Virus record (IMG/VR): IMGVR_UViG_3300045972_000084
Location: 1 to 64,000 of that record
Reading direction: 5' to 3' (one strand)
DNA from: a virus
DNA: 64,000 bases
Within the stretch, counting starts at the first letter, position 1. The number at the start of each line of letters is the position of its first letter. A program made the translations under genes and the position numbers. Positions 3,104 to 44,450 of the stretch are shown here, one piece after another. The notes beneath the pieces were generated by a model. The model made no database searches. It was not told the origin of the DNA and saw nothing but the letters and a program-made list of their open reading frames with translations.

Positions 3104-3157
3104 ACGTCAGGACAGTTGGCCGACACCGGCCTTGTAAGCCAGTGAAAGGAAAACATC

Positions 3158-4189: not shown

Positions 4190-4439
4190 AGATTTAGGGC
4201 CACAAGCCCAAACCATTGACCGGTTGGTTACCTGTCCGCATCGCTCAGTGTGCGTAATCACTGAGCAACTTTAGAGCACGACATCAGTCGCGCTGGCAAG
4301 GCACTGGGACAAGCTGCAATGGCTCCCCATTCAAGGTGCTCTTGGCCTGCATACGGCAATCGAGTCAGACAGCTCTTTTTGATCGCTCACACCAATTCCG
4401 GTCGCTGAGCAATTTGTCAATTCATCAAAAGGAAAAATC

Positions 4440-26190: not shown

Positions 26191-26193
26191 CAA

Positions 26194-26514: not shown

Positions 26515-26518
26515 TATT

Positions 26519-26548
26519 TTGACTATTGCATTGCTTGTAGCGTAAAAT
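26519..26548 (+). promoter_or_regulatory. Sigma70-like promoter TTGACT-N18-TAAAAT
   Basis: -35 at 26519-24 and -10 at 26543-48, in an intergenic region. Confidence 0.5.
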
Positions 26549-26640
26549 GCTGCCAGCAACAAAACCGGACAAACAGCACCGGTATAACAAACAGCAGCCA
26601 TAGTCTTGGCCTAGCCGCCTTCAAATTCCGTAATCACCAC

Positions 26641-26669
26641 AGCCGCCTGGATTTCCACGCGGCTTTTTT
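26641..26669 (+). terminator. Rho-independent terminator
   Basis: AGCCGC (26641-46) / GCGGCT (26659-64) stem plus TTTTTT. Confidence 0.75.
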
Positions 26670-26682
26670 GTCGTTTCATCCT

Positions 26683-27207
26683 ATGCAAATCACAGTCAAG
26701 TACGGGTCTGGGTTTGAGGTGAATCCACCTAAAGAAGTAGAAAGCAAAGAGGTGGACTTACCTCAGTCCATCGCTATGCGCGAGAAGGTTGACCTGATAG
26801 CAAGGGGAATCATAGATAGCGCGCTTCCGCAAATCGAGTGCCCTATTCGGCACCACTTCGCGCCAGGGATGTACGGGAGAGAGATTTCGATACCAGCTGG
26901 AACTGTCTTGATTGGAGCTGTTCACAAGACAGACAACTTGGTAGTTTTGTCCAAGGGTCTCATTAGGATGGTTACAGAAGACGGGTTCACTGAAATAGCC
27001 GCACCCCACACCATGATGTGCAAGGCCGGTACAAGAAATGCCGGATTGATTGTTGAAGATTCCGTGTGGACAAATTTTTTCCCAACATTAGAAACCGACC
27101 CAGACAAACTCATTGAGTTACTCACAGAGTCAACTGCAGATGAGATCCTTGGCGGAAAGAACAACGAACAGCTATTGGCAATGAAGGCCAAGCAATTGGA
27201 GGTTTGA
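26683..27207 (+). CDS. Hypothetical protein, cupin-like beta-barrel suspected (174 aa)
   Basis: ORF. The start is uncertain (ATG 26683 or TTG 26668, neither with a clear SD). Confidence 0.45.
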   Translation: MQITVKYGSGFEVNPPKEVESKEVDLPQSIAMREKVDLIARGIIDSALPQIECPIRHHFAPGMYGREISIPAGTVLIGAVHKTDNLVVLSKGLIRMVTEDGFTEIAAPHTMMCKAGTRNAGLIVEDSVWTNFFPTLETDPDKLIELLTESTADEILGGKNNEQLLAMKAKQLEV

Positions 27208-27208
27208 T

Positions 27209-28189
27209 ATGTCAGTAGCAATGGTTTCAGCGGGAATAGGCGCAGTTGGCATGCTTGCAAGTAATGCAAATGCGCGATCCGCCGCAAGTCAGGCATCCGA
27301 TGCAAATGCAGCAGCATTGGATGCTCAAGGAAAAGCCACTGGAGACCGTCTTGCATTTGACACAAAGGTCTATAACGACGGCGCTGGAGATCGCCAGTTT
27401 GCATCTAACCAAGCGCGTCAAGCTGCGCAATGGCAAGCAGATGACCGGACAAAGTACAACGCACTTCAGGATGATCAAATCGCCAGGGGTAAAAAATACC
27501 AAGGCGTTCAGGACAAAATCCTAACTGACGCTGAAAACTTCGATACTGAAGGCAAGCGCGAGGAGCTTGCTGGGAAAGCCATTGGAGATGTGAATCAGGG
27601 CTTTGATGCAGCCACATCACAGGTGCGGCGCAATCAGGAGCGCATGGGTATTAACCCAAGCTCAGGAAGGGCGATGGCCACAGAGAATGCCGGAATGTTC
27701 TCCAAGGCTCTTGGCATCGCCGGGGCTGCCAGTAAAGCCAGGGCTGATGCCACAACAGTTGGCTATGCCAGGAAGATGGATGCCGCAGGATTTGCAAATG
27801 GGACCATCGGTAACCAGGCAACGCAGGCAAGTCTCGCGCTTCAGTCTGGAAACTCTTCCGTCAATAACAGCCTCATTCCACTCGCTGTTTCATCTTCTGC
27901 CAACGGAGCGATGAGCACTGGCTATGGAAACGCTGCTGGTGGATATCAGAATCTTGGCAATACACAAGCTGGAAGCTTCTACGGATCTCAGAACTATGGA
28001 GCAGGAGTAGGACAGTCTGTAGGAAACATGTTTGGGAATATCGCAGGCATGGGTTTGAAGGCTTACCAGAACTGGAATTCAGGATCTAGTGCACCAATGG
28101 GTGGATGGTCTCCGAATTCAAATAGTGCTTCTACTAATGATGCGATGTCTGCCAGCTTACTGGCAAATGGGTATGGAACTGGACCTTAA
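27209..28189 (+). CDS. Internal virion/ejection protein candidate (326 aa, G/A/S/N/Q-rich)
   Basis: Position upstream of the SLT and giant protein genes, and its composition. Confidence 0.45.
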   Translation: MSVAMVSAGIGAVGMLASNANARSAASQASDANAAALDAQGKATGDRLAFDTKVYNDGAGDRQFASNQARQAAQWQADDRTKYNALQDDQIARGKKYQGVQDKILTDAENFDTEGKREELAGKAIGDVNQGFDAATSQVRRNQERMGINPSSGRAMATENAGMFSKALGIAGAASKARADATTVGYARKMDAAGFANGTIGNQATQASLALQSGNSSVNNSLIPLAVSSSANGAMSTGYGNAAGGYQNLGNTQAGSFYGSQNYGAGVGQSVGNMFGNIAGMGLKAYQNWNSGSSAPMGGWSPNSNSASTNDAMSASLLANGYGTGP

Positions 28190-28201
28190 TAGGAATAAAT
28201 C

Positions 28202-30190
28202 ATGGGACTATATTTAGGCGGAATCGCAAACGGTTTCAATGGATTTATGCAGGGCATGGACCAGCAGTCTGCTAGAGAGCAGCTCGCAAAAGACCGAGAA
28301 TTTCAGCAGTCTCAGCGCCAGGTTACTCTCGACCAGCAAGCCAGAGATAGGGACTTGCTCAGTCAGATGCGCAGCGTAAACCCGAACAAGGAAGTTCCTG
28401 TTGATGATGGGTCGGATGCTCCACAGGCCCCGGCCTCAAGCGATGCTTCGACTCAAGCTCCAAGCCAGCAGGCTACTGCTGCTCCAGCGAGTGCGCCAGC
28501 AGCTCCAGTGGATAACGCTCCTACTCCATCGGTAGACGCTACAGCAATCCCACCTTTAAATCCAAATGCAATAAGGGAATCCAGAGACGCATCATCTGCT
28601 CTAGCAACTGGAAAAGATAAATCAACTCCATCCTCAAATTTATCTCCGCTAACTCCATCAAGCGTCGAATCGCAGCCCGCTATTCCAAAGGTTACGGTAG
28701 CGCCAACTGATAGTGGGTTCCAGCCTCCTCCAGCAGGAGACCAGGCTTCTCCTGCGTCCGCTCCAGAATCCACGCAAAATGCAGTAGCTCAGCAACCCCA
28801 AGCAAAGCCGAAGACACGCTTTGTACCGAAGACTCAGGATGAGATGGCGCAAGAGTATGCACAGATTGCATATAAGGCAGGGAAGCCGGAAGAAGCCATT
28901 AAGTACATCGACTACGCAAACAAGGTGGCATTCGAGAGATCCACACGACAGTTTGCTCAGATTGATGCCAGTGCTGAAGGAAAGAGTACCGCCCAGTTAG
29001 CGCAACAGGTACAGCAAGTATTCCATGATGATCCAATGTTTGGAACATTCAAGATCACTGGAGTCGACCCTAAAACCGGCGCAGTGACTATTCTTGCATC
29101 GAATAAAAATACTGGCTATTCCACTACCAAGACTTTTACAAATCCTGGTCAACTCATGGACTCCATGCGCGCGTACTACACGCCCGACATGTTCAATCAA
29201 ATGCGCCAGGCTGCGGCTTCTGCTAAGTACAAGCAAATGTCAGAGCACTTCAATCTTAAAGCTGGTGAAGTTGCTTTCGATGGAACTGGAAGATTGATCG
29301 GAAGTAATACGCAGGCTCCAAAAGGATTCGAGTGGGTCAAGGATCAGTTTGGTAATAACACTGGTGAGCTGCACAAGATGTCGACAGGGGACGGAGAGAT
29401 GGCTGCAGATGCTAAGGTTGCTGCAGCAGAGGCTCGCAAGAAAGCTGATAAGGATGTTGGGTATTCAATAATTAAAGATAGCTTCAAGGATCAAGGGGAC
29501 GCAAAGAACATTGGTCCTGCAACTAGCATCTATGAAAATATCCTGGCGAATAGCAATGATCCTGGGATGACTCCACAGACTGCTGCTGGAATTGCCATGA
29601 GGGCTGTACAAGCTGGAACTCCATTCACAGAAACTCTTGACCCAGCAACTGGGTACATAAATCAACATCTTCCTGACTACGCTCAGGTAGATAAAAAGAC
29701 TGGACTTCCATCTGGTCAAGCTACAAATACCAATCATCTCATTGGATCTAGGACTTATAGCGGAGAGTCAGATCCAATATCTGCAGTGAAAATGAAGGAG
29801 TACGTTAATAAGTGGACATCATCTTTGCCAAAGAATGAACTCACAGAATATCAAAGCGTTACCACCCCAGAAGGTGCTGCCAAATACAACACAGCAGTTG
29901 CTGGAGTTATTGATAAGGTAAAGCAAAATTTTCAAGCTGAGCGTTCTGCCGCTAAAAATAGCCAAGAACAAGAATCTGCATTGAATAAGTACCAGGCTGC
30001 TATGGATAAGATAGCAGCAGACCAGCGTAAGGTAAATTTATTCCGCCAGTTTTATACGCCACCACCAGCTCCTACGCAGGCAGATTCAAGCCCTGGCATT
30101 GTTAATAAGCTTTCTAATTTTATTGGCGGAATTGGTAGTGCTGTGGGGTCTGCAAATTATCGAAGTGGATCAGCTACTCAACGCCTATAG
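28202..30190 (+). CDS. Internal virion/ejection protein candidate (662 aa) with P/A/S/Q low-complexity N-terminal third
   Basis: Position and composition. Confidence 0.45.
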   Translation: MGLYLGGIANGFNGFMQGMDQQSAREQLAKDREFQQSQRQVTLDQQARDRDLLSQMRSVNPNKEVPVDDGSDAPQAPASSDASTQAPSQQATAAPASAPAAPVDNAPTPSVDATAIPPLNPNAIRESRDASSALATGKDKSTPSSNLSPLTPSSVESQPAIPKVTVAPTDSGFQPPPAGDQASPASAPESTQNAVAQQPQAKPKTRFVPKTQDEMAQEYAQIAYKAGKPEEAIKYIDYANKVAFERSTRQFAQIDASAEGKSTAQLAQQVQQVFHDDPMFGTFKITGVDPKTGAVTILASNKNTGYSTTKTFTNPGQLMDSMRAYYTPDMFNQMRQAAASAKYKQMSEHFNLKAGEVAFDGTGRLIGSNTQAPKGFEWVKDQFGNNTGELHKMSTGDGEMAADAKVAAAEARKKADKDVGYSIIKDSFKDQGDAKNIGPATSIYENILANSNDPGMTPQTAAGIAMRAVQAGTPFTETLDPATGYINQHLPDYAQVDKKTGLPSGQATNTNHLIGSRTYSGESDPISAVKMKEYVNKWTSSLPKNELTEYQSVTTPEGAAKYNTAVAGVIDKVKQNFQAERSAAKNSQEQESALNKYQAAMDKIAADQRKVNLFRQFYTPPPAPTQADSSPGIVNKLSNFIGGIGSAVGSANYRSGSATQRL

Positions 30191-30199
30191 GACAGTCAA

Positions 30200-30790
30200 A
30201 TGCCTATTTCATTTCTTAATGAGTTAATGAGTAGCTATAGCGGTAAGACTGCACCTTCAGTCAACCCATCATCTTCTGGGAAAGTTACGTTAGCACCAGG
30301 GTCTTCATCGGTCATAGGATACAAAGATCCAGCATGGGATAGCGCTGAACAAAATGCTTCCAGCAAGACCGGGGTTCCAGTGGAGCTAATCAGGTCGATA
30401 CGAGTCAATGGTGAGAAGAGTAACTCCGATCAAGTTAGCCCAAAGGGAGCTCGCGGAGTTTATCAATTCATCCCATCTACCCGCAATGCATTCAAGGAAA
30501 AGTATGGAGTTGATGCGTACAGCAATGACCCAAATGAACAAGCCTTAGCAGCAGCACATCATCTTAATGAAGGCTACCAAAGAACAGGTAGTTGGGGTAA
30601 AGCTGCTGCTGGTTTCAATGGTGGAATATCCGGAGAACGCGGAACCAATAAAACTCAAGAAAACAAAGACTATGTAAAACGTGTCATGGGTGGAATTACG
30701 CAGCGTACATCTCTAAATGATGATGACTATAGCGATGCGTGGAGTAACGATAAATTTGCAAGTACGGACGATACCGATCAAACTGCCTGA
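30200..30790 (+). CDS. Lytic transglycosylase (SLT domain) virion protein
   Basis: VNGEKSN (catalytic Glu) ... GARGVYQFIPSTRNAF ... matches the SLT motif set. Confidence 0.75.
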   Translation: MPISFLNELMSSYSGKTAPSVNPSSSGKVTLAPGSSSVIGYKDPAWDSAEQNASSKTGVPVELIRSIRVNGEKSNSDQVSPKGARGVYQFIPSTRNAFKEKYGVDAYSNDPNEQALAAAHHLNEGYQRTGSWGKAAAGFNGGISGERGTNKTQENKDYVKRVMGGITQRTSLNDDDYSDAWSNDKFASTDDTDQTA

Positions 30791-30797
30791 GAAAAAT

Positions 30798-33700
30798 ATG
30801 AGCGAAACACAATTTTCTTCTTTGAACAAAATTCTTGCAGATTACAACAAGTCTGGAGATTCTCCATCTATTTCACACCCAGTTAATTCAATGGATGGGC
30901 AGGTTGGATTAGCGCAACCAACACAATCTCCAATGGGCTTCATGGACCATGTGTCAGACGTTGGAAATTCTATCGTTCAAGGTGGCAAGGATTTAGTTCG
31001 CGGCGGATCTGACATGGTTCGGTCAACCGTAGGAGGATTTGCAGATCTTGGGAATAAGGCTGGCCTTGTATCTGATGAAACAAAAAACTCCATTGATGAG
31101 TCGAATGTCAAAGCCATTGGTGAAAACCTGAAAGAGGCTGAGGCTCCTGACCGGTATAAGCCGAAAGGACTATCTGGAGAGGTGGCGCTTGGACTCACTC
31201 ATGCCGCCCCAGCTATTGCGGTATCCATGATCCCCGGCGTTGGCCAGGTGCTTGGCCCGGCCGCCTTCGCAATTCAAGGAGCTGGCGCTGGATTTGATGC
31301 TATTGCCCAAGGTGATAGCCTTAATAATGCACAGGCAAAAGCCATTGGCCAGGGAGCGCTCAACACTGCACTTGGCCATGTTGTAAGTGGATCTGGGAAT
31401 GCTCTTCTGTCAAAGGTTCCGGTAGTAGGCAGGGCATTTGAACAAACAGCCGCAGACACCCTCCCAGCCGTTGGCGCAAGGTTCGCGCAGGGTGCTGGAT
31501 CGATGGCTGCATTTAAGCCTGCTGGGGCTGCAATTGATGCGGCTGCAGACTATGCCACTGGAGAGATGAAGAATCCTGATGGCACGGATAAGACATATGA
31601 CTGGAAGCCAGGTGCGGCTGATCTTTTGATCGGTGGCTTCATGGCAGTACCGCACTCCGTCTCCGAGTACGCCAGCCGCAATAAGATGCCTGCACAGGCT
31701 ACTCTATTCTCTGACGGCTCAACAGGTGTAGCTCATAAAAATGGCACCCTGTTCTCATCTTCTTCTGCCGCAGAATCATTTATCCAATCCAATAAATTGG
31801 ATGGAGCTACCGTAGCTCCAGTCACCAAAGGAATGTTCGACAAGAACTCCAAGGATGACAAGGTTCTCGGATATGTTGTAAAGCCACCGATAGATATCAC
31901 CCCAAGTGGTGGACAAACATCTGAAGCAATTCCCCCTACCGATCCGGTAACTCAATCCCTCACAGATTCTGCCAATAAAGGCGGGCCACTATCTACCGCT
32001 GTATTGGCGGCAGACCCCATTGGCCAACGTGCCAGTGAAGTGGAGGTCATGCTTCGCTCAGGAGATCTCCTGGAGAAGGTGCGCGCCATTGATCCTTCTG
32101 GCGCAACTCCGTTCCTGGATGCATGGCGTACGGCTCAAAACAAGTCCCTTCCAGAGCAAGTTAGACAAACAGCGCTGAATCAAGTTAATCAGGTAATGGA
32201 TCTGGTTAAGCAGCGCCAAGCGAAAGACCTCGCACAGCAGGTTGGATCGCAAATGCCAAACCTGGAGCAGCAAGGCCCTGGTGTTGAGATCAATAACGGC
32301 CTACCAAGCTCCATCACTCAGGCGGGCCACCAGTGGTCTGAGATGTCTGGATCGACTCCGGCAGAAGACATGGCTGCGCAGAAAGCCCAGGCTCTCCAGG
32401 AGCAACAAGCGCAGGAAACACAACCCTCATCTGATGCGCCAATTATCCAATCCGGACCCCGTGAGCGACAAGCAAAGCGGGATGCCGAATTGGCTGGGCA
32501 ACGATGGCAAGATAAACAACCTATAGGCAACCCAGCCTACGAATCATCACCCTACCCAGCGCCCTCCACAGAGGGCGTTTCCACATCTGGAGATCTGAAT
32601 GGCACAAAGGATGGAGCTCAACCCGTTCCTGGAGTCAGCACACCTACAGGGCGCGCTATCGATGCAGGCAGCGTGGCTCCTGGAGATGTCGGAAGAGATG
32701 GACTGGCAGCTAACCAAGAGCGGCCACCTGTTAGTAGCGTGGGTGAATTGGGTAAACAGTCCAGTGGATCAAGCAACTCAACAGTAGGAGAAGGTCATGG
32801 CAATGAAGCCACTCAAGCCATCCAAGCAGAAACGCAAGGATCGCCGGAACCATCCAGAACAGCAGTAGAGCCTGAAGCGCAGACAGTTACCCCCGCAGGA
32901 GATGGTCCGGCAGATGTTCGCCGTCGCAAGGCGCAGCTGTCCAGCATGATCTCTAAGGGATTTAGCGATGCCGAGCGCCGCGATGATGGAAGCTTCTGGC
33001 TGATTAATCACCGTACCAATGAGGAAATGAAGCTGGATGGACCGGCAGACTTCCAGCGCGCACGCACCCTTACTGAAAATGCTATTAAGGAAAAGGCAGC
33101 GGAATCCCCAAGCTCGCCTCGCAATGAAAAGAATGAGCCAAGTAAAGCCCAGATTGATGCTAACAACTACGAGCAACCGGAGACAGAAAAGCTTGGCTTT
33201 CGTGTTGGAGTTGAACAAGATGTAGGGTCTGAGCGCAAAGGAATAGATGAGCAGGGCAAGTCATGGCGACAAGTAATGCGGCACATCTATGGAAAGATTA
33301 AAGGGTTCGGCAAGGGGTTCGATGGCGATGAGCCAGATGCCTTTGTTGGCCATGGCCGTCGCATATTTGTGATCGACCAGACTAAGCCGGACGGAACCTT
33401 TGATGAGCATAAGATCATGCTCGGCTTCAAGGATGAGGAAGATGCACGCCAATCCTACCTAAGCAACTATGAAAAGGGTTGGAACCGCATTGGCGCAATC
33501 ACGGAGATGCGTCCCCATGAATTGCGTCAATGGCTCAAGAATGGTGGAGCACTAAAACCTGCAAAGCCTTATGATCCTGTGACGAATACAGGGGTTAAAT
33601 ATGCAGCAGTTCATGGAGTCGATAAGTCATCTTCCGAAGGAAAAACAGATGGCCAAGATCGAGCAGGAGATCAAGGAGTGGACCGAACTGGCGGACAGCC

Positions 33701-36700
33701 AGAGGACATCGGACTGCGCGACTCCAGTATTGGAAGCCTTGCACAAAGTGGATCAGCTCTTCGAGATTCTGAAAAAGATGCGGCAGACGTAGCATCTACC
33801 GCACAAAAGCAAGGGAGAGAAATTTCTCTTGCTAACCCAGAGCATCCGGCCACGCGCGCGATCAATGCTCTGCTTGATGTTATGGCGGGTCTCACTGGAC
33901 ATCGAGGGATTGCAGTATCGGATACCGGACGCGGAGCATCTGACGGTTTCTATGATCCATTGACAGATCGATATCACGTCAATGTCGATGCGCCTCAAAT
34001 GAACGTAGCCAAGACTATCGTTCATGAGTTTGGTCACCTGGCCAAAAAATACCCTGGCATCGCTGCACTCTATAGCGAGATGTATCGCCTGATTCCAGAG
34101 AATATCAAACGCGAATATTTTGAGAAGTACAAATTCAAAGGACAGTCTTTTGATTCTGCAAATGGGAAGCAGCTTCACCTACTTGAAGAAGAGATGATCA
34201 ATGACTTCCTTGGCGGCCGGATGCATGACAAGGAATGGTTGGCAGACTTGGCAAATAAGAAGCCAAATTTATTCCAGAACTTTATCAAAGAATGGATACC
34301 ACTACTCGACAAACTCATCACAGAACTGCGTGGAATCCTTGGGTCAGAGCGCGATAGTGGCCTGCAACAGAAGGACATTGATGAGCGAATGATTTCTGGC
34401 GGACATCTGGATCAGCTTGAACAGATGAAGCGCATTGCCATGGATGTTGCTGAGGAGTGGGCAAAGAACCGCCCTGCGTACGCTGAGCGCGCTGGAATCA
34501 ATGACATTCTTGTGAAGCACAGTTCACGCGAAGATCTCCAAAAAGAGATGGAAGATGAGCTTAACGGTCGATCTGTTTCAGATGAGGATATCAAGGCCAA
34601 AGGCCGCATGGCAGAAGATGCCTACCCAGATCTGGAATGGAAGCCAGACAGCTCCGGGTTCCAAGAAACAACCATGGCACCGAGCGAAGGAAAGCATCAG
34701 CAGCGCATTGAGATGAATGAAGATCTGCGATCTGACCTTTGGGAAGGTGGAATGAATAACACCTGGGTTGGACCGAGCCTGGACGAGCGTGATGGATACG
34801 CGACCAAGAAAGGCGCTAGGGACTTCTTCCGTCGCCAGGTTGCTGCTATTGATTTGCGCAACCGTAAGTTTGACCTAGCCAATACCGTTGAGAAAAGTAA
34901 GCTTAATGAGTTGGTGAGTGCGTGGAAAACCATGGAAGAGATCGATGGCGCGCACCGGTACAGAGGAACCCTGCGCTCCGACATGTCTCTCAAGGATATC
35001 GCCAAGAGCATGGGCGTCACCGACAAATACGATGTGTCCATTATGAAGGCTCCTAGTGAGTTGGGTGAACACTCCATTAGCGTCACTTTTGTTGATAAAA
35101 AGACCGGCGCTAGCTATGGAGCCACCCTAGATCGTCATACCAAAGATGGTCAGAGATTCCTAACGGCCAATACGATTGAGCTTGGAAAGAGTGGACTTGG
35201 TGGAGCTTTCTATCAAATGGCTGCAGAGTTCGCCGCGCGCAACGGTATGAAGCTGCACCCGGAAGATTCTCTATCCGGAATCAATGCCTACCGCCGCACT
35301 GAACAGCAACTGTCTGCTGCGCTGCGAACAGATAAATCTAACGTCATGGTTCCGCATAAGGTCCAGCGCGTACATGGATTTGAAGATGATGCAACTCGTC
35401 AAGAGCAGCATGATGCAAACCTTGGTCGATTGATATTGGCTGGAGTGCGCAATGCGAAAGAGCTCATCCCAAGCTTTGAAGCTCTTAGATACTCTCCAGA
35501 GATGGGGACGTTTACCGACACCAAAGGTGTGGACAGAGAAAAAGCAATTACTCAAATTCTGAATAGCCCAGACTCGCGCGCATTTGGCATGGGTCGATCT
35601 ACCTTGGCCCGGGCAGTCATGTCAAATATGATTCTCAAGGGAGAACTGTCTGCAAAAGATGTTGCCTCATTCAAGGAGCCTGTCCTTTATAGCGCACGCG
35701 ATGAGGCAGCTCAGCAATATCGAGATGTGGAAGATGAGTATCGAGGTACTGAGCATTGGATGAAGGCCCCCAATGGGAAGCCAACAAAACTGAATGAGCG
35801 CCAATGGGTCCAGGCGCGCACACCAAACTTCCTGAAGTGGTTCGGTGACTGGACCAAGGGTGACATCTGGGGCCGTGACGATGTGTCCAAGGTTGTCGAT
35901 GAGAATGGAGAGCCATTGGTCGTCTATCACGGAACTGATAAAGGGGGCTTTTATTCCTTCAACGAACCTGGTGGGAAAGACCGTGGTGACTTAGGAATAT
36001 TCACGACAAGCAATGGATCAATGGCGGAAAGTTACATCCGAAAAGGTCATGCCAAAGACCTAACTCCATTGAATGATCAGCAGAAGCTGGACGATGCTGG
36101 TATTGAAATTTATGAATACCAGGGAAGGGAATCTTCCAAGGCAACAAAAGACGAAACATTCTATGGGTATCGCTCGTCTTGGTCTGGAGATGAGAGTGGA
36201 TATTCATCAAAGGAGGAGGCTCAGAGCGCTGCAATAAGCCTTATTGAAGAGGGCGATGATGGAAGCACTAAGCCAGGTGTCTACGCCACATTCCTGAATC
36301 TTCGCAACCCCTACGAAACAAATTTCGAGGGCGCGATGTGGAGCGGCGAGAGGCATGACCAATTTATGGTGCTGGATAAGGATGGGGAGCCGATCTACAC
36401 AGACGACGGCCGCCAATTCATGGATAACGCTGAAGCCATTGATCTTGCGGATGCAAGGGGTGGCCAGGTAACTGATGCCGACTCTCACTGGGAAACCACC
36501 GATAGCGCCGTGCGCAATGGACGAAATGGTCATGACGGAACCATCATTCTCAATGTCGTTGATGACGGCGGTGGAGTGGGTTATGACATGGAGCCGTCCG
36601 ATGTGTTTGTTGCAAACCATGCAGATCAGCTGAAATCTGCAGACTTCAACACTGGAGAGTTTGGCGATACCGATGACATTCGTTACAGCGAAAAATCAAA

Positions 36701-39700
36701 TGAACGAGAGTACAAACTAGACATCAAGATGGAAGAGCGATCAACTTTAAAGACAGCACGTCTAAGCGAGGAAGAACAATCTGCAATCGCCTCAGCAGCC
36801 AAGGATCTTGGCCTGTCTGATGTAGCAGTGGCCAAGGTTATTGAGTCAGCAAAGGAAACAAAGAAGCGCTTCCCAGTATCGAAAGGTTGGGCACCAGCAG
36901 AGGTGATTGGTATCTACTTCAAAAAGGATGACGATGAACTCCCAATCCCTGGCACTGAAGAACCAAAGTTCAAAGTAATACCTTACGGATTCAATATCCC
37001 TCCAGGTGAGAAGAGGGCTCCAGCTAAGATCGATGAGAAGTGGATGTCGCAGGTAACTGACAAGTTCCATGGTCTCGTTGAAGACCTGTACAAGCGATCA
37101 GACGCTGGCGACAAAAATGCCCAGACCATCATTGCGCACCAGACCTGGTATCGGAACGTGGCCGAGGTGCTGCGCCGCGAGTATGGTGCACAAGGTGACC
37201 TCTTGGCAGACTTGCTTGGAGCTATAAGCCCTAACACACCAGTAGACACGAACTGGCGTTTTTCTCTGGACATCCTGCGCAGGTTTGTCCGTGGCGAGTT
37301 CAAGCCTCTCATGGAGAATTTCGTCAAATACATTGAGGCCGGTGGAGCTCCATCTAAATACCCGGCAGCAGAGAAGATCCGCCAACTCAGCGGGAAGCTC
37401 TATGGAATGAACTCCGGCAATGCCATGGTGGCCATGGCCAACCTCTGGAGAAACATTGAGTCCGGCCAAGCGCCAAAGGCGCGCAACTTTGCGCTCAACC
37501 TGATTGGCCAATCCAACATGGCCACGATTGACGTATGGGCCGCTCGCATGCTACGCCGGGCAGCCAACCTAGTTCGTGGTGCCGACTTGCCACGCATCCC
37601 CCCATCGTCTGAAGCTGGCGTGTCTGGCGTCTGGAACGCAGATGCAACCAAGGTAACCGGTGCATTCGGCTTCGGTGCTGAGGTCATGCGCAGGGTGTCT
37701 GAGCGCATGCAGAAGGATGGTCGCAATGTCACCCCACCGGATCTGCAGGCAATTGCCTGGTTCGCAGAGAAGGAATTGTGGGGCACTAAAGGCTGGACCA
37801 CCAAGACGGGCGAGGGTGGATCGTTCGAGGAGAACATCTCCGCGTCTCCCGTGGAGCGCTACCTGGCCGGTTGGAGTATCCAGCAGGGCGAGAAAGCGCC
37901 TGAGCCAGGAGATGTGTCGACCGCCCAGGCGCGCGTTATGGCTATGCTCATTGGGGACGACAGCGTTGTAGCCGCCCGGGCACAGCCAACATTCGGCCTG
38001 TACGGCGGCGTCATTGAGCACTCATTCGACACCGAGTGGACTGTCACCAAAGGACAGCATGACCCTTCACTGGTAATGGCTGAAATTGCCAAAGTCAGTA
38101 AGGAAAATGGTCAATATGACATCTTTGTCTCCAGGGTGATACACCCAGATGAGCGAAGTGCTAACGCTCGGCCCGGCGTTGAGATATATTTCAAAACGAA
38201 GCGCGATCTTGAGGCGGCAATGCCGGTCCTTAATGAGTTCACATCACGCGGTCAGGATGGCTTTACTCTGGCAACAGACATGCGATCCAAGCCCGGCGAG
38301 TTCATTGGGGTTCGACTGCAGTACGTTCCAGAGATTTCTATGCGCTGGGATGAGGGTCTTCGCAAGGAGCTTATGGCTCCTGGCGGGATTGAGAAGGTAC
38401 TGAAGGAAAAGTTCGAGGCATTGCGTGACATTGCGCGCGATGTCCAATTGATGAATGGGGTTGCATACGCCAGCACCCATTTGTATGACACGGTGGTGAT
38501 TGGGAAGGAGAACTACGATGAGTACATTGATCGAGCAGCTGGAGGAGGACATCCCAAGGATGGAGGCCAAGTATGGTTCGGACGACCAGTTCGTGAAGGA
38601 CTCGAAGGAGCAGTTGCGCGCTATGAAGGAAAACGTGGGCAAGTCGACGCAGGACGTGTACCGGATGCAGGCAGTGAACTTCAGTCCGTCAAAAACAGTA
38701 GCCGGGACGAAGGACATAGCGGACGGGATGGAGCGCCAGATCAACGAACGATTCGGAGCGCTATCCACTACGGACAAAGACCGGGACTAAAAGTTCTATC
38801 CGGGTCCAGTCACGGAACTGGGCTCAAAGGAGCTGAGTATGACAGGCTTAAAAACACAACAGACCCGCGACTCACGAAGCGGGTTTATTTTTATGCTCCA
38901 GTCGAAGGAGGCATACCACAGCCTGAAATCGGCCTGGGAGGAAGCGTTTATAGAGCCGACCTCGAAGGCATCTATGACCTACGCACCGCAAACCAACCCA
39001 TCCGTGGAGCAGGTAATAGTTTTGAATCAGCGCTGCTTGACGCTGGATACAAGGGTTACATCAACCCCGAGCAAGGAACCATTGTTGTCCTAAACCAGGA
39101 TGTTCCGGTGGAGCACATTGGCGGGATCGGAGATCACAAGGTTATCCAGCGCCGCAATGAACGTACTATCCCTAGAGTAGAAACGCGCCAGGAAGGCGCA
39201 GAACTCGTTCGGCAGCCTCAAGGCCAGGAGGCTATGGACCTGGTTCAAAACAAGGCTGCAATCAAGGATGCGGCCCCGTCCTACCGCATGGAGTACGGGC
39301 ACGCCCGCGTGCTGAAGAGCGAAGCGCCAAAGGCAGACGCCGTCCTGGCCAAGGCCGGGTCTACTTTCCAGTTTGGTGATATTCGCCACAGCTCGCGCGA
39401 TCTAGGCTTCTACTCTGAGCTATCCAAGCAAGTTGAAAAAGCCACCATGAAGCAGGCCCCGTCCGGTGCATGGAAGTCCTACATCAAGGCCTTGACCCAG
39501 AAGGGCGTGAAGGCGGATGAGATCGAGTGGACTGGCGTCAATGATTTCCTGGATCTGAAAGACGGCAAGGTATCGAAGGATGAGATCCTGAAATTCCTTG
39601 ACGGTAATGGAGTCCAGATCAATGAAGTGACGCTTGGAAGTCCGAAGGCTGATGTCGAAAAGGTAAGCGCCAAGATCGGCCACCTCGGCTACGAAGCCTA

Positions 39701-42700
39701 CCTAGATCCAATCGACGGCACTGCGTACTTCATCGACCCTGACGGAGAGATCGCCTACTACGATGATCTTCCAGACCACATCCAGAAGATGGTGGATGAT
39801 ACTGGCGTAAGCGTGTCCGGTCCTGCGAAGTACGAGAACTACGTTCTTCCCGGCGGCGAGAACTACCGCGAAGTTCTTCTGACGTTGCCCGGAAGAAATG
39901 GATGGCTTGGCGAGAACGGGGAAACGGGCGAAGGAAAAATCTTTAACACACGCGACGAGGCGATTGCATTTGCTGGGCTGAACGGTGAAGTTAGCGAGTC
40001 TGAATCTAAGGATGGCTACCGCTCATCCCACTGGGACCAGAAGAATGTCCTAGCTCACATTCGTATGAACGACCGTACCGACTCCGAAGGTAAACGGGTT
40101 TTATTCGTGGAAGAGGTGCAATCTGACTGGGGTCAGGATGGAAAGAAGAAGGGGTTCAATGCTGAGCTAGACAAGACCCCTCTGACCCTAGAAGAAATTT
40201 CAGAGTTGAACGACTTGTACGGACTGCGCATCACAGGAAGAACACCAGAGCAGACTGCACGCATGCACGCGCTGAACGACCGCGATAACGCATCCAAAGG
40301 CAAGGGTACGATCCCGGCTGCCCCATTCGTAGGCAAGACCGACGCTTGGGTATCCCTAGCCCTGAAGCGAGTCATCAAGATGGCCGTGGATGGAGGCTAT
40401 GACAAGGTCGCGTTTGTGAATGGAGAGCAATCAGCAGATCGGTACTCTCTTGCAAAGAAGGTAAAGATCATTGACTACAGCGTGACTGGCGACCAGAACT
40501 ATCACGTTGAGGCATTCACGCATGACGGGGAGGTATTGCCGATCCCATACAGCCTTGATGCTGATGGTATCGAGCGTTATGTCGGCAAAGAAATTGCCCA
40601 GAAAATTGTCGATACCGCAACCAGAGAAAAGCAATCTGTAAAGGGCGATGACCTAAAGGTCGGTGGTGAAGGCATGAAAACTTTCTATGACCGCATCGTC
40701 CCATCCGTAGCCAAAGACGTGCTCAAGAAATTGGGTGGCGAGAAGCTGGAGACGGTATCAATGTCTCACGACCCAAATCAAGAGCTATCCAAGTGGGAGC
40801 CTGAAGATGGAGTAGGAGATGGAAGTAAAGCGGCCATTGACCAATACTCACAACCAGGTTTCACCATAACCCCGGAGATGCGTGATAAGGTTGGAAGTGG
40901 TATGCCGCTATTTAGTGAGCGAGATGAGAAGAATACAGATCTATTCCACAAGGATGTCAACACGCAGCGCATGTATCTACATAGCGTAGCCACAAAAGAA
41001 TATCTCCTGAATCGCCGAGTATCCAGTGCCGATACCGAGGTATCCGAGCGGTCTGGCTCACCCAATTCAGGAGACGTTGCTAGTGTAATCAATTCTCTAC
41101 TGAATGACAAGGGCGATGATGAAGTGAAAAAAAGCATGCGCTCCGGAACCTCAACCTGGGACATGTACGACGACTCCAAGTTTGATGACATCACCTACAA
41201 GCTGCAGAATAAGCAGATTGATACTAAGCGTGTCATTGAGTCCATTGAGAAGTATGTCGGAAAAGTAGACAACGATAAGAACGTCTACTTGCAAGAGGAG
41301 CTGTTCCATGGCCGCGCCGCCAAGGCAACCCACGACTTCGCCAAGCATGAGCTTGAGCCCTTGATGAAAGAGATTAAGGACGCGGGCTATGAACTGTCTG
41401 ATGTGGAGGAATACCTGCATGCGCGCCACGCCAAGGAGGCTAATGCGGTGATCGCCATGCGTGACCCCAGCATGCCTGATGGCGGGTCCGGAATGACCGA
41501 CGCCGCAGCCGATGCCTATATGAGAGCTCTGAGTCAAGAGGACCGAGCCAAGCTCTCTTCTATCTCCGCCAAGGTGGACGCCATTACCAACCAAACCAGG
41601 CAGATGTATGCCGACTATGGTCTGGAATCGCAGGCGACGGTAGACGGTTGGAAGTCCATGTTCAAGAACTACATCCCGCTTCAGCGCGAGGATAAGGAAG
41701 GCACCATGGGTATAGGCCAGGGCTTCTCCGTCAAGGGTAAAGAGGTCAAGGGCCGCACCGGCTCAACCCGCAAGGTGGTCGATATCCTGGCCAACATTGC
41801 CATGCAGCGCGAGCGCTTGATTGTTCGTGGGGAAAAGAACCGCGTCTCCAATGCGCTCCTGGGCCTAGCCATCGCCAACCCCAACCCGGAGTTCTGGAGC
41901 GTCGGCGCACCGCCGTCTGAGCGCGTCTATGACCCGGACACCAACTCCGTGGTACTTCGGCCTGACCCGATGTACAAGAGCCGTGACAACGTGATCGTGA
42001 CAAAGGCGAAGCAGCCCGACGGGACCATCAAAGAGGTAGCGGTCGTTTTCAATGAGGAAGATAAGCGCGCACTGCGCATGGCCAAGGCCTTAAAGAACCT
42101 GGATGCTGGAGATCTTGAAGGATTGCTGGGTGTAAGCGCCAAGATCACACGTTATTTCTCAGCGGTGAACACCCAGTACAACCCAGTGTTTGGTGTAGTG
42201 AATCTGGTGCGTGACGTGCAGCATGCCATGATCACGCTGGACCGAACGCCTCTGGCCAAGAAAAAAGGCAAGATCGCACGCGACACTGTGTCGGCCCTAT
42301 CCGGTATTTATCAGGACATGCGCGCAGAGCGTAATGGTCAGCCCGGGACATCCCAGTGGTCCCAGCTCTGGGAAGACTTCCAGCATGAAGGCGGGCAGAC
42401 TGGCTACCGGCAGATGTTCGCTACAAGCAAGGACCGCGCTGAAGAGCTGCAAAAGACGCTCAATCCAGATGCCTGGCTTGAAGGGAAGTACAGCAAGATC
42501 TTCACTGCCAATGGGGCTTTAAAGGTTCCATTGTCAAAAGCTAAGGAAGGTGCAAGCGTTATCTTTGATTGGCTGAGTGACTACAACGAGTCCATGGAAA
42601 ATGGAGTTCGACTTGCAACCTATAAGGCTGGCCTAGATCAGGGTATGAGCAAGCAGGAAGCTGCCAGCTTGGCCAAGAACTTGACGGTCAACTTCAACCG

Positions 42701-43826
42701 CAAGGGTCAAATTGGGCAGCAGGCAGGAGCGGTGTACGCATTCTTCAATGCAGCCGTTCAAGGCACGGCCAACATTGGACAGACACTGTTCACTATGGAA
42801 GGCGGGAATATAAAGAGTGCCCGCTTGAGCTCTACCGGAAAGAAAGTAGTTTATGGCGGGATGATGCTGGGTGCCATGCAGGCGCTGGCGCTGGCTGCCG
42901 CAGGATTCACAGACGATGATCCTCCACAGTTTGTGCGAGACCGTGGACTGGTTTTCCCAATTGGAGACAAGAAGTACATCTCAATTCCACTACCTCAAGG
43001 GTTCAATGTGATCCCGGGAATGGGCCGACAACTTACTGAGTTTGCGCTCAATGGGTTTAAGAACCCAGCCAAGAAGGCAATCGATTTGATTGGCCTGTTT
43101 GCGGATAACTTCAATCCGATTGGCAATGCCGGGATGTCTATGCAGACCCTGGCACCCACAGCGCTGGACCCATTGGTTGCACTGACTGAGAATAGGGACT
43201 TTACTGGAAAGCCGATTGCCCGGGTTAACAGCAATAAGGCTGTACCAGGATTCACCCAGTTCAAGGACAGCGCTACCGTGATTGGAAAGCTGATCGCTGA
43301 AGGAATCAATGGGGTAACCGGTGGCAATGCCTACGTTGCCGGTGCGCTCAGCCCAACTCCTGACCAGATTGACTACCTGCTAGGGCAGGTAACCGGTGGA
43401 GTCGGCCGCGAGCTGTCAAAGGTTGAGCAGACAGCCATCAGCACGGCGACTGGGGAGGATGTTCCATCCTTCAAGATGCCACTGGTAGGACGCTTTTATG
43501 GAGATGCCAAAGAACAGGCTGCCCAAGGAGGCCAGTTCTACTCCAACGTCAATCATCTCAATGAGATTGAGACTGAGGTCAAGGCAATGCGTAAGGATGG
43601 GAAATCTGCTGATGCGCAACAAGTGCTCCGGGATAACCCAGATGCCTACTTGATTGCTCAAGCAAATGTGGCAGAACGCCAGGTGCAGCGCCTCAACAAA
43701 GAGAAGCGAGACCTGGTTGCCAAGGGTGCTGACCGTGACCTTGTAAAAGCCAAAGAGCTTCAAATCACGGCAGTAATGACGCGGCTTAATAATGCCATGG
43801 AGAAAATCCATGAGACATCAAGGTAA
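30798..43826 (+). CDS. Giant multidomain virion/ejection protein (4,342 aa; polyvalent-protein type)
   Basis: Uninterrupted 13,029-nt ORF. ATG at 30798 lies 7 nt after the SLT stop. It contains a HEFGH zincin motif, an ART-like module, several conserved uncharacterised modules and hydrophobic segments. Confidence 0.85.
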   Translation: MSETQFSSLNKILADYNKSGDSPSISHPVNSMDGQVGLAQPTQSPMGFMDHVSDVGNSIVQGGKDLVRGGSDMVRSTVGGFADLGNKAGLVSDETKNSIDESNVKAIGENLKEAEAPDRYKPKGLSGEVALGLTHAAPAIAVSMIPGVGQVLGPAAFAIQGAGAGFDAIAQGDSLNNAQAKAIGQGALNTALGHVVSGSGNALLSKVPVVGRAFEQTAADTLPAVGARFAQGAGSMAAFKPAGAAIDAAADYATGEMKNPDGTDKTYDWKPGAADLLIGGFMAVPHSVSEYASRNKMPAQATLFSDGSTGVAHKNGTLFSSSSAAESFIQSNKLDGATVAPVTKGMFDKNSKDDKVLGYVVKPPIDITPSGGQTSEAIPPTDPVTQSLTDSANKGGPLSTAVLAADPIGQRASEVEVMLRSGDLLEKVRAIDPSGATPFLDAWRTAQNKSLPEQVRQTALNQVNQVMDLVKQRQAKDLAQQVGSQMPNLEQQGPGVEINNGLPSSITQAGHQWSEMSGSTPAEDMAAQKAQALQEQQAQETQPSSDAPIIQSGPRERQAKRDAELAGQRWQDKQPIGNPAYESSPYPAPSTEGVSTSGDLNGTKDGAQPVPGVSTPTGRAIDAGSVAPGDVGRDGLAANQERPPVSSVGELGKQSSGSSNSTVGEGHGNEATQAIQAETQGSPEPSRTAVEPEAQTVTPAGDGPADVRRRKAQLSSMISKGFSDAERRDDGSFWLINHRTNEEMKLDGPADFQRARTLTENAIKEKAAESPSSPRNEKNEPSKAQIDANNYEQPETEKLGFRVGVEQDVGSERKGIDEQGKSWRQVMRHIYGKIKGFGKGFDGDEPDAFVGHGRRIFVIDQTKPDGTFDEHKIMLGFKDEEDARQSYLSNYEKGWNRIGAITEMRPHELRQWLKNGGALKPAKPYDPVTNTGVKYAAVHGVDKSSSEGKTDGQDRAGDQGVDRTGGQPEDIGLRDSSIGSLAQSGSALRDSEKDAADVASTAQKQGREISLANPEHPATRAINALLDVMAGLTGHRGIAVSDTGRGASDGFYDPLTDRYHVNVDAPQMNVAKTIVHEFGHLAKKYPGIAALYSEMYRLIPENIKREYFEKYKFKGQSFDSANGKQLHLLEEEMINDFLGGRMHDKEWLADLANKKPNLFQNFIKEWIPLLDKLITELRGILGSERDSGLQQKDIDERMISGGHLDQLEQMKRIAMDVAEEWAKNRPAYAERAGINDILVKHSSREDLQKEMEDELNGRSVSDEDIKAKGRMAEDAYPDLEWKPDSSGFQETTMAPSEGKHQQRIEMNEDLRSDLWEGGMNNTWVGPSLDERDGYATKKGARDFFRRQVAAIDLRNRKFDLANTVEKSKLNELVSAWKTMEEIDGAHRYRGTLRSDMSLKDIAKSMGVTDKYDVSIMKAPSELGEHSISVTFVDKKTGASYGATLDRHTKDGQRFLTANTIELGKSGLGGAFYQMAAEFAARNGMKLHPEDSLSGINAYRRTEQQLSAALRTDKSNVMVPHKVQRVHGFEDDATRQEQHDANLGRLILAGVRNAKELIPSFEALRYSPEMGTFTDTKGVDREKAITQILNSPDSRAFGMGRSTLARAVMSNMILKGELSAKDVASFKEPVLYSARDEAAQQYRDVEDEYRGTEHWMKAPNGKPTKLNERQWVQARTPNFLKWFGDWTKGDIWGRDDVSKVVDENGEPLVVYHGTDKGGFYSFNEPGGKDRGDLGIFTTSNGSMAESYIRKGHAKDLTPLNDQQKLDDAGIEIYEYQGRESSKATKDETFYGYRSSWSGDESGYSSKEEAQSAAISLIEEGDDGSTKPGVYATFLNLRNPYETNFEGAMWSGERHDQFMVLDKDGEPIYTDDGRQFMDNAEAIDLADARGGQVTDADSHWETTDSAVRNGRNGHDGTIILNVVDDGGGVGYDMEPSDVFVANHADQLKSADFNTGEFGDTDDIRYSEKSNEREYKLDIKMEERSTLKTARLSEEEQSAIASAAKDLGLSDVAVAKVIESAKETKKRFPVSKGWAPAEVIGIYFKKDDDELPIPGTEEPKFKVIPYGFNIPPGEKRAPAKIDEKWMSQVTDKFHGLVEDLYKRSDAGDKNAQTIIAHQTWYRNVAEVLRREYGAQGDLLADLLGAISPNTPVDTNWRFSLDILRRFVRGEFKPLMENFVKYIEAGGAPSKYPAAEKIRQLSGKLYGMNSGNAMVAMANLWRNIESGQAPKARNFALNLIGQSNMATIDVWAARMLRRAANLVRGADLPRIPPSSEAGVSGVWNADATKVTGAFGFGAEVMRRVSERMQKDGRNVTPPDLQAIAWFAEKELWGTKGWTTKTGEGGSFEENISASPVERYLAGWSIQQGEKAPEPGDVSTAQARVMAMLIGDDSVVAARAQPTFGLYGGVIEHSFDTEWTVTKGQHDPSLVMAEIAKVSKENGQYDIFVSRVIHPDERSANARPGVEIYFKTKRDLEAAMPVLNEFTSRGQDGFTLATDMRSKPGEFIGVRLQYVPEISMRWDEGLRKELMAPGGIEKVLKEKFEALRDIARDVQLMNGVAYASTHLYDTVVIGKENYDEYIDRAAGGGHPKDGGQVWFGRPVREGLEGAVARYEGKRGQVDAGRVPDAGSELQSVKNSSRDEGHSGRDGAPDQRTIRSAIHYGQRPGLKVLSGSSHGTGLKGAEYDRLKNTTDPRLTKRVYFYAPVEGGIPQPEIGLGGSVYRADLEGIYDLRTANQPIRGAGNSFESALLDAGYKGYINPEQGTIVVLNQDVPVEHIGGIGDHKVIQRRNERTIPRVETRQEGAELVRQPQGQEAMDLVQNKAAIKDAAPSYRMEYGHARVLKSEAPKADAVLAKAGSTFQFGDIRHSSRDLGFYSELSKQVEKATMKQAPSGAWKSYIKALTQKGVKADEIEWTGVNDFLDLKDGKVSKDEILKFLDGNGVQINEVTLGSPKADVEKVSAKIGHLGYEAYLDPIDGTAYFIDPDGEIAYYDDLPDHIQKMVDDTGVSVSGPAKYENYVLPGGENYREVLLTLPGRNGWLGENGETGEGKIFNTRDEAIAFAGLNGEVSESESKDGYRSSHWDQKNVLAHIRMNDRTDSEGKRVLFVEEVQSDWGQDGKKKGFNAELDKTPLTLEEISELNDLYGLRITGRTPEQTARMHALNDRDNASKGKGTIPAAPFVGKTDAWVSLALKRVIKMAVDGGYDKVAFVNGEQSADRYSLAKKVKIIDYSVTGDQNYHVEAFTHDGEVLPIPYSLDADGIERYVGKEIAQKIVDTATREKQSVKGDDLKVGGEGMKTFYDRIVPSVAKDVLKKLGGEKLETVSMSHDPNQELSKWEPEDGVGDGSKAAIDQYSQPGFTITPEMRDKVGSGMPLFSERDEKNTDLFHKDVNTQRMYLHSVATKEYLLNRRVSSADTEVSERSGSPNSGDVASVINSLLNDKGDDEVKKSMRSGTSTWDMYDDSKFDDITYKLQNKQIDTKRVIESIEKYVGKVDNDKNVYLQEELFHGRAAKATHDFAKHELEPLMKEIKDAGYELSDVEEYLHARHAKEANAVIAMRDPSMPDGGSGMTDAAADAYMRALSQEDRAKLSSISAKVDAITNQTRQMYADYGLESQATVDGWKSMFKNYIPLQREDKEGTMGIGQGFSVKGKEVKGRTGSTRKVVDILANIAMQRERLIVRGEKNRVSNALLGLAIANPNPEFWSVGAPPSERVYDPDTNSVVLRPDPMYKSRDNVIVTKAKQPDGTIKEVAVVFNEEDKRALRMAKALKNLDAGDLEGLLGVSAKITRYFSAVNTQYNPVFGVVNLVRDVQHAMITLDRTPLAKKKGKIARDTVSALSGIYQDMRAERNGQPGTSQWSQLWEDFQHEGGQTGYRQMFATSKDRAEELQKTLNPDAWLEGKYSKIFTANGALKVPLSKAKEGASVIFDWLSDYNESMENGVRLATYKAGLDQGMSKQEAASLAKNLTVNFNRKGQIGQQAGAVYAFFNAAVQGTANIGQTLFTMEGGNIKSARLSSTGKKVVYGGMMLGAMQALALAAAGFTDDDPPQFVRDRGLVFPIGDKKYISIPLPQGFNVIPGMGRQLTEFALNGFKNPAKKAIDLIGLFADNFNPIGNAGMSMQTLAPTALDPLVALTENRDFTGKPIARVNSNKAVPGFTQFKDSATVIGKLIAEGINGVTGGNAYVAGALSPTPDQIDYLLGQVTGGVGRELSKVEQTAISTATGEDVPSFKMPLVGRFYGDAKEQAAQGGQFYSNVNHLNEIETEVKAMRKDGKSADAQQVLRDNPDAYLIAQANVAERQVQRLNKEKRDLVAKGADRDLVKAKELQITAVMTRLNNAMEKIHETSR

Positions 43827-43835
43827 GGGATTGGC

Positions 43836-44450
43836 ATGGCCGAAACTTCAAAAATTCTTGGAAGTGCAGGGCAGGGACTGCCAATACCAAGCTGGAGCTC
43901 CGCAGTAAAAGACCCGACTTTCTGGAATGAGATAAAGAACAGCGCAGTGAATCTGGTGACAAACCCGGTAGACCAGTATCACAAGACAATCGATGCAGTT
44001 CTTACCCCGGCTGACAGGGCGTCTGAAGTCAGCAAGCGGGAATACCCAACACAGGACTGGGATCTGACCCAGCGCAATGCATTACGCCACTCCATGTGGG
44101 TTGGTGGCATGGCGCGGGCGATGGGCGCTGGCGCAGACAATCCAAGGTGGTCTGGGCTTGCTACCTCAGCTGCTAAGGGGGTCGGATATGCCAATGAGGC
44201 TGCGAGCTATCTAAAGCGAATCAAGGACGGTCAGAGTACAGATGATCCTGAGTATGTGCGAGACACGCTCCATGATCTGAATGCTAATGCAGTAGGCACT
44301 ATGGCGGCAGCCAAGGCAACGTCTGACGAAGACTTCGAGAATCAGCTTATTGACGCATCCAAAAACGCCAGAAGGGGCGCTCCGGTTGGCCTACTAAATA
44401 TGACTGACGGTCGGCTCTCAGCTGATCCAGACTCTCAAGCACCCAAATAG
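43836..44450 (+). CDS. Hypothetical protein (204 aa) with NALRH-x2-W ... ANE ... HDLNANAVG motif triad
   Basis: ORF 9 nt after the giant gene and the last gene of the late operon. Confidence 0.5.
   Translation: MAETSKILGSAGQGLPIPSWSSAVKDPTFWNEIKNSAVNLVTNPVDQYHKTIDAVLTPADRASEVSKREYPTQDWDLTQRNALRHSMWVGGMARAMGAGADNPRWSGLATSAAKGVGYANEAASYLKRIKDGQSTDDPEYVRDTLHDLNANAVGTMAAAKATSDEDFENQLIDASKNARRGAPVGLLNMTDGRLSADPDSQAPK

Follow-up and report, generated by a model that had tools for sequence, protein, structure and literature searches.

Giant polyvalent proteins make up one fifth of many podophage genomes, have been found in virions and, in at least one case (PTXU04 gp25), are needed for infection, yet their delivery mechanism and most of their domains are poorly understood. 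The class was described by Iyer et al. 2017 (PMC5512222), who also proposed that such proteins are processed by proteases. Several members have since been studied. JC1 gp69 is known in virions from mass spectrometry (PMC9144972). Proteomics of virions also recovered phi24B gp47, which is abundant, is invisible in cryo-EM and has been proposed to be an ejection protein (bioRxiv 10.64898/2026.04.10.717836), and PTXU04 gp25 is required for plaque formation (PMC11879866). A second described system is that of phage N4, whose virion RNA polymerase (vRNAP) has been proposed to cross a channel of ~35 Å as beads on a string (PMC13434306). The ejection operon of the Schitoviridae is marked by a suppression of cysteine, which has been ascribed to transit through the periplasm (PMC11445570). 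Here we describe a gene for a protein of 4,342 amino acids (aa), referred to below as the giant protein, located at 30798..43826 (+) in a viral DNA stretch of 64,000 nucleotides (nt) (IMG/VR record IMGVR_UViG_3300045972_000084, positions 1 to 64,000; the window). The tests described below support its assignment as a phage-type polyvalent protein on the basis of sequence, and we consider it likely that it is packaged in the virion and ejected; the capsid of the phage is of the N4 type and its tail is probably short. The class is already known; the giant protein sharpens the known picture and makes it testable, without changing it.

The gene and its polyvalent architecture

The first-pass annotation of the window, made from the sequence by eye, had reported a single 13-kb open reading frame of 4,342 aa, and our analysis confirms that the gene is real. 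The open reading frame listing of the window gives 4,342 codons and a stop without interruption. The open frame itself spans 30717..43826 (+), which corresponds to 4,369 aa when counted from the first ATG. The upstream SLT gene stops at 30790 and 7 nt later follows the ATG at 30798, from which the 4,342-aa product starts. An identical protein with the same neighbours has been called in an independent public assembly (Logan SRR35489184, 49.9-kb contig), and therefore an error of sequencing or assembly affecting the frame, which the first-pass annotation had named as a reason to give up its reading, is unlikely. A stop-free run of this length has a probability of (61/64)^4342 ~ e^-208, which rules out a chance origin, and homologues cover almost the whole length of the protein collinearly. 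Megablast against 50,697 phage records found no close DNA relative of the gene, and a scan for promoters and terminators between 26000 and 45500 gave nothing exceeding the shuffled expectation.

Five Pfam families exceed their curated cut-offs on the giant protein, namely InPase, LPD37, ART-PolyVal, DUF7178 and LPD38. Together they cover about one quarter of the chain, leaving about three quarters outside any Pfam model, and scans with NCBIfam and PADLOC returned no families. At least three conserved unnamed blocks are present in addition to the five families. The signature domains of the polyvalent class (LPD38, InPase, LPD37 and ART-PolyVal) are all among the matches over cut-off, and the gene belongs to a + strand module with a portal, an N4-type major capsid protein, tail-type proteins and an SLT protein. 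The giant protein thus resembles the class of Iyer et al. 2017 (PMC5512222) in these four domains, in the many unrelated modules on one chain, in its virion-gene neighbourhood and in a putative internal metallopeptidase-like domain. It differs from the class in that its zincin-like domain matches neither MPTase-PolyVal nor MuF_C, and in the large share of the chain outside Pfam models, which includes a conserved module of ~515 aa.

Full-length relatives of 3.4-5.1 k aa, such as P0255 (4,389 aa), P0265 (4,462 aa), P0276 (3,988 aa) and P0252 (5,118 aa), have a common collinear backbone and carry different added domains. In a scan of 13 giants, the domains that recur are ART-PolyVal (10), LPD38 (8), LPD37 (6), DUF7178 (5) and InPase (4), while glucosaminidase, MuF_C, NUDIX, RadC, ddrB-ParB, GNAT, methyltransferase and HATPase domains are variable. 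The pattern across relatives is one of a conserved chassis with an exchangeable payload, and together with the four class families it bears out the polyvalent-protein reading proposed earlier for this gene. Readings of the chain as a tape-measure or fibre-like protein were rejected, as no structural Pfam or PHROG family lies on it and the matched domains are enzymatic; no repeat scan was run.

All six modules listed in the first-pass annotation were recovered: the Gly/Ala-rich hydrophobic N-terminus, the pyrophosphatase-like block, the HEFGH motif, the ADP-ribosyltransferase (ART)-like block, the block with SHWDQ…EEVQSDW/IPAAPF motifs and the C-terminal part with a hydrophobic segment. They are described below with their locations.

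The cysteine-free block and the proposed shared delivery elements

The giant protein does not contain a single cysteine. TGT and TGC codons are absent from its frame, while the two alternative frames contain 112 and 201. This absence extends over five adjacent genes (27209-44450, +), which hold 0 Cys in 5,730 aa (P≈4e-18), whereas the virion genes upstream have a Cys content of 0.70% and the early genes one of 1.56%. The first gene of the block encodes a 326-aa protein (27209..28189, +) that matches phrog_8003 'virion structural protein' (4e-31). It is followed by a 662-aa protein (28202..30190, +), a candidate ejection protein with no detectable relatives (no PHROG, Pfam or NCBIfam match and no tblastn match to the 50,697 phages), and by the 196-aa SLT lytic transglycosylase (30200..30790, +; PF01464, 2.6e-11), which also matches phrog_342 'internal virion protein with endolysin domain' (3.5e-17). 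Downstream of the giant gene lies a 204-aa DUF6973 protein (43836..44450, +; PF22322, 2.8e-6), the last + strand gene before the convergent genes. Two internal-virion-like proteins and an SLT protein had been noted earlier ahead of the giant gene; the SLT protein stands and the 326-aa protein is a 'virion structural protein' in PHROG, but for the 662-aa protein no match was obtained. In size and position, and not in sequence, the 662-aa protein resembles N4 gp51 (644 aa).

The same signature is seen in proven ejection proteins. N4 gp50, gp51 and gp52 contain 0 Cys in 4,294 aa, P22 gp7, gp20 and gp16 contain none, and of the T7 ejection proteins gp15 and gp16 have none and gp14 has one. In the same three phages, cysteine does occur in portal, tail and fibre proteins. 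Cysteine is also scarce in relatives of the giant protein: giants with the zincin-like domain hold 75 Cys in 200,838 aa, 87 of the 120 homologues of the C-terminal module are free of it, and so are gp57 of Bacillus phage vB_BspP_Dartukuta and the giants of Pseudoalteromonas phage vB_Pun_Y3. The signature has already been published for the Schitoviridae and serves here as a test; we do not claim it as a discovery. By analogy with these phages, 27209-44450 is probably an ejection operon. The extension of the signature from the Schitoviridae to polyvalent-protein phages provides a cheap sequence test for co-ejected neighbours. Two large proteins of the virion module upstream of the block (18761-26190), of 994 aa (phrog_511 'internal virion protein', 3.6e-109) and 1,482 aa (no family match), hold 7 and 5 Cys, respectively, and by this measure they are probably not ejected.

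The position of the giant gene agrees with that of an ejection gene. In N4 the order is portal, capsid and then gp52-gp51-gp50, with the 3,500-aa ejected vRNAP last; the giant gene occupies the vRNAP slot, coming last among the large genes, behind the smaller probable ejection genes, and closing the late operon. Similar to N4, the window has a major capsid protein of the same family and a probable ejection block completely free of cysteine, and the giant protein shares with gp50 a hydrophobic N-terminal region and a multidomain, linker-rich chain. However, in contrast to gp50, it has no RNA polymerase domain (no polymerase Pfam family on the chain) and its payload consists of effector-type enzymes. 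BLASTP of the virion proteins of the window against those of N4 matched only the capsid, weakly (2e-4), and gave nothing for the giant protein, which is unlike both gp50 and gp51 in sequence. The two small genes are also in reversed order relative to N4.

The best-conserved part of the giant protein is a C-terminal module of ~890 aa (aa ~3452-4340; 41151..43817, +). It has 476 homologues with identities of up to 77%, many of them in betaproteobacterial metagenome bins, and matches phrog_14770 (2.8e-192). The module is present in 349 phage records, which include 933W and other Shiga toxin (Stx) phages (30.5-30.7% identity), Vibrio phages, Ralstonia phage GP4, BcepIL02, Bacillus Page-like podophages and Dartukuta. 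The AlphaFold (AF2) model of the module is mostly helical, with a predicted local distance difference test score (pLDDT) of 80 and a predicted template modelling score (pTM) of 0.78. At E<=1e-3 it has 70 matches in BFVD, mostly to numbered last or later fragments of large polyvalent proteins, and PTXU04 gp25 is one of its fold matches there (4.8e-21). Within the module lies a hydrophobic Gly-zipper-like helix, VVYGGMMLGAMQALALAAAGF (aa 4017-4037; 42846..42908, +), with a peak of 1.59 on the Kyte-Doolittle (KD) scale (KD-19). Across 47 homologues, its Gly, Gln and Ala residues hardly vary. Most related giants that reach into the module have an equivalent helix at a distance of ~300-370 aa from the C-end. 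The helix is followed by the LPD38 domain (aa 4040-4230; 42915..43487, +; PF18857, 5.9e-42).

A second hydrophobic element is located at the other end of the chain. The N-terminal region at aa ~125-290 (31170..31667, +) is Gly/Ala-rich (43% G+A) and moderately hydrophobic, with KD-19 peaks of 1.3-1.5 at aa 127-159. Although their sequences show little identity, nearly all of the 28 related giants carry a comparable patch in their N-terminal ~400 aa.

The C-terminal module also connects the giant protein to proteins found in virions. Like phi24B gp47 (2,811 aa), JC1 gp69 (4,515 aa) and the 'DarB-like' protein of BcepIL02, it ends in a module of ~800-890 aa with LPD38, and like the giant genes of 933W/phi24B-, GP4- and Bcep22-like podophages its gene is the last large one of the virion module, with convergent genes after it. 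The N-terminal ~3,400 aa, however, are unrelated to those giants, which carry LPD5/LPD1/MuF-C or SLT/helicase/methylase modules instead. The capsid differs as well, being of the N4-gp56 family here and not of the type found in 933W-like phages. A comparison with the large virion protein of Bcep22/BcepIL02 had been made in the first-pass annotation. It holds for the C-terminal module, where the BcepIL02 'DarB-like' gene is 27.5% identical over 82% of the module (tblastn, 3e-49), but not for the rest of the chain, which has no helicase or methylase domain.

Among INPHARED phages, the nearest relative is Dartukuta gp57 (4,203 aa), whose C-terminal module is 54.6% identical over 99% of the length. 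It also matches in the InPase and ART regions and takes the same position, after a 660-aa cysteine-free protein. The remaining chain is not detectably similar, and the host of Dartukuta is Gram-positive.

The ejection reading is drawn from these three lines together, that is, the cysteine-free signature common to proven ejection proteins, the N4 vRNAP slot and the relatives found in virions. The same three lines speak against a late protein that is neither packaged nor ejected, whether an internal head or scaffold-like protein kept in the capsid or a late cytoplasmic factor. We regard such a protein as improbable.

Domains of the proposed central payload

Between the N-terminal patch and the C-terminal module the chain contains enzyme-like domains and linkers. 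A region of low hydrophobicity at aa ~524-790 (32367..33167, +) is probably a disordered linker, as judged by a composition scan. It leads into the InPase domain, which is family I pyrophosphatase-like (aa 784-914; 33147..33539, +; PF18823, 5.6e-38); a phage portal of solved structure, 9b41_L, ends in the same domain (7.5e-24). The acidic motif DGDEPDAF is kept, and D842, D844, D847, D869, E870 and K872 are at least 90% conserved in 17 homologues. The metal-binding acidic pattern of family I pyrophosphatases (D-x-D-x-x-D and partners) is thus present, and pyrophosphatase activity is predicted.

The InPase region bears on the annotation that relatives of the giant protein usually carry, DarB-like antirestriction, in which a methylase/helicase would shield the incoming DNA from type I restriction. 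The GP4 and BcepIL02 relatives are annotated in this way, and phrog_10089 'DarB-like antirestriction' matches aa 651-943 of the giant protein. However, this match is limited to the InPase region, the similarity to BcepIL02 is confined to the C-terminal module, and neither a methyltransferase nor a helicase domain was found with Pfam and NCBIfam at E<=1. Missing these domains, a DarB-like function is already weakened, and we consider it very improbable.

Next to the InPase domain is a zincin-like domain of ~200 aa (aa ~1025-1222; 33870..34463, +) with the motif HEFGH at aa 1076-1080. A word-indexed homologue search with aa 931-1445 found nothing, while an exhaustive HMMER search of 1.84 billion representatives gave 93 homologues of the domain, nearly all in proteins of 1.5-5.1 k aa. 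H1076, E1077, H1080 and E1132 are invariant in 72 of 72 aligned copies and D1136 is conserved in 97%. From our reading of the motif, HExxH with a downstream Glu looks like a gluzincin-type signature. There is no significant match of the domain to any Pfam peptidase model, and its profile has no real match among PDB sequences (only spurious HMG-box hits, E≈0.02, and 27 residues touching TTHA0227, E 1.3). Of the known peptidase models of polyvalent proteins, MPTase-PolyVal and MuF_C are both absent from the Pfam match list of the giant protein; MuF_C is present separately in the relative P0265. The zincin reading made by eye is backed by the invariant motifs, but not by a significant match to a known peptidase family.

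The LPD37 domain (aa 1446-1614; 35133..35639, +; PF18853, 2.6e-12) is embedded in a conserved block at aa ~1259-1634 (33 homologues). It is followed by the ART-PolyVal ADP-ribosyltransferase at aa ~1665-1965 (35790..36692, +; PF18760, 3.3e-12), for which the Pfam match begins at aa 1701 and is split into two stretches by an insert of ~75 aa. H1711 (in VVYHGT), Y1746 and E1844 (in FEGA) are at least 90% conserved in 16 homologues. The ART-PolyVal domain presumably belongs to the H-Y-E class, and H1711, Y1746 and E1844 are a candidate H-Y-E triad, in which Y1829, equally conserved, could also take the place of Y1746. In the ART, InPase and zincin-like domains alike, the conserved residues are compatible with the expected catalytic sites. 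DUF7178 (aa 2109-2252; 37122..37553, +; PF23802, 1.2e-6) exceeds its cut-off of 27 with 29.1 bits and is among the recurrent domains noted above.

Two further blocks lie outside all Pfam models. The first, of ~170 aa (aa ~2632-2798; 38691..39191, +; 23 homologues aligned), is 65% identical to the C-end of P0029, and its tblastn matches are small phage proteins, hypothetical proteins of Limnohabitans phage DC33 and phage zth2-2. The second is the ~515-aa module (aa ~2865-3380; 39390..40937, +), which has 123 homologues, none of them with a Pfam model on this stretch. Its motifs are LPGGENYRE, SSHWDxxNVLAHxRxNDR, EExQSDW and GGEGMKxFYD, and 19 columns, mostly polar, are invariant. The module looks enzymatic, with a putative activity. 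Its AF2 model (pLDDT 80, pTM 0.74) has no fold match in the PDB (best E 0.01, prob 0.08), and its profile matches nothing among PDB sequences. Scattered GNAT-like fold matches in the PDB had probabilities <0.2 and were distrusted, and a PD-(D/E)xK reading of the D…ExQ hairpin was rejected, the Asp being at the wrong strand end in the model. The module occurs in a few phages and also in a 5,000-aa 'LPD23 domain-containing protein' of P. aeruginosa megaplasmids of 222-282 kb (31.7% identity over 98%; for example plasmid p382, NZ_CP115292.1, 1-10953). This bears out the first-pass annotation, which had linked the SHWDQ block to giants of conjugative elements. With the HExxH…E domain and the ~515-aa module, two conserved domain families without a database name are defined.

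The nature of the payload bears on the question of where it acts. The giant protein could be a structural component of the ejectosome, building a conduit across the envelope, with enzyme domains that serve envelope penetration, for example a metallopeptidase that cuts peptidoglycan peptides. Exactly such a role has been proposed by the phi24B authors for gp47 and its metallopeptidase (bioRxiv 10.64898/2026.04.10.717836). A glucosaminidase is present at the N-terminus of some relatives, the SLT gene lies directly upstream, and the PTXU04 homologue is required for plaques even on a laboratory host. However, an ART needs NAD+ and a pyrophosphatase needs inorganic pyrophosphate (PPi) or nucleotide substrates, which points to the cytoplasm (established biochemistry; Iyer 2017, PMC5512222). 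Furthermore, the payload varies strongly between relatives (NUDIX, RadC, ParB, GNAT, methylase), which fits conflict effectors better than a fixed conduit. A purely structural role is therefore rather unlikely in our view, and we prefer a virion-packaged polyvalent ejection protein, of which the ART and pyrophosphatase-like enzymes are candidates for early host takeover or counter-defence.

A proposed delivery model and the remaining virion module

In the delivery model that we propose, the head would contain a few copies of the giant protein, each a loosely folded chain of 'beads on a string'. On infection the chain would be threaded through the portal-tail channel together with the cysteine-free 326-aa, 662-aa, SLT and DUF6973 proteins. 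The hydrophobic elements at both ends and the ~890-aa C-terminal module might form a common delivery and anchoring part that serves packaging, forms a channel or inserts into a membrane. The central ~3,000 aa would be an exchangeable enzyme payload acting early in the host, consisting of the pyrophosphatase-like domain, the ADP-ribosyltransferase, the ~515-aa module and other unnamed blocks. The internal HExxH…E domain is a likely protease, which may cut the chain into separate effectors. Packaging, ejection and a counter-defence role of the protein and its modules are inferred.

Several observations weigh against this reading. The absence of cysteine is a correlate and not a proof, and some virion proteins that are not ejected are also free of it (the scaffold-like proteins of N4 and of the window, and N4 gp56). 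The C-terminal module is dissimilar to N4 gp51, T7 gp16 and T7 gp15 (hhalign probabilities below 1%) and its AF2 model matches no PDB structure (best E 0.85), so that its role is assigned from conservation and position only. With a KD value of 1.6, the helix at aa 4017-4037 is of just moderate hydrophobicity and could lie buried inside the fold, and the zincin-like domain matches no known peptidase family. Presence in the virion, ejection and processing would follow by analogy, the virion evidence coming from relatives, and the short-tailed morphology is likewise suggested by capsid type and gene order.

A clean division between the conserved C-terminal module and the variable payload is seen in the giant protein. 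It is conceivable, although we put this forward tentatively, that in this lineage with an N4-type capsid the slot for a giant in the ejection operon holds an effector array and not a vRNAP, mounted on a portable and essential delivery chassis. The chassis would consist of the N-terminal hydrophobic patch and the ~890-aa C-terminal module with its membrane-type helix, common to hundreds of otherwise unrelated phages. The payload would include at least one enzyme family of a new fold, the 515-aa module with its invariant His, Arg, Glu, Gln and Asp. If this is true, the C-terminal module would stand for a general principle by which cargo of megadalton size is loaded into heads and delivered via tails. 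Phage Y3 has, at 24147-37521, giant cysteine-free genes for 3,421 and 1,027 aa in the same slot, and no similarity between the Y3 giants and that of the window was detected. The slot in the ejection operon thus appears to accept unrelated giant cargoes.

The virion module to which the giant gene belongs starts with the portal (229-2574, +) and ends with the cysteine-free block, after which convergent − strand genes follow. The major capsid protein (4440-5423, +) is a member of TIGR04387 (N4-gp56 family, 3e-98), and its closest phage relatives are in Pseudoalteromonas phage vB_Pun_Y3 (46%), Pseudomonas phage Rollin, Xanthomonas phage DES1 and Bacillus Page-like podophages. An endonuclease VII/HNH-like gene with 7 Cys (10404-10952; phrog_1035, 2.6e-24) is situated inside the module. 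The 934-aa protein encoded at 11968-14772 contains four concanavalin-A/laminin-G-type lectin domains (PF13385, 2e-77, 4 stretches) and is likely to be a receptor-binding tail protein.

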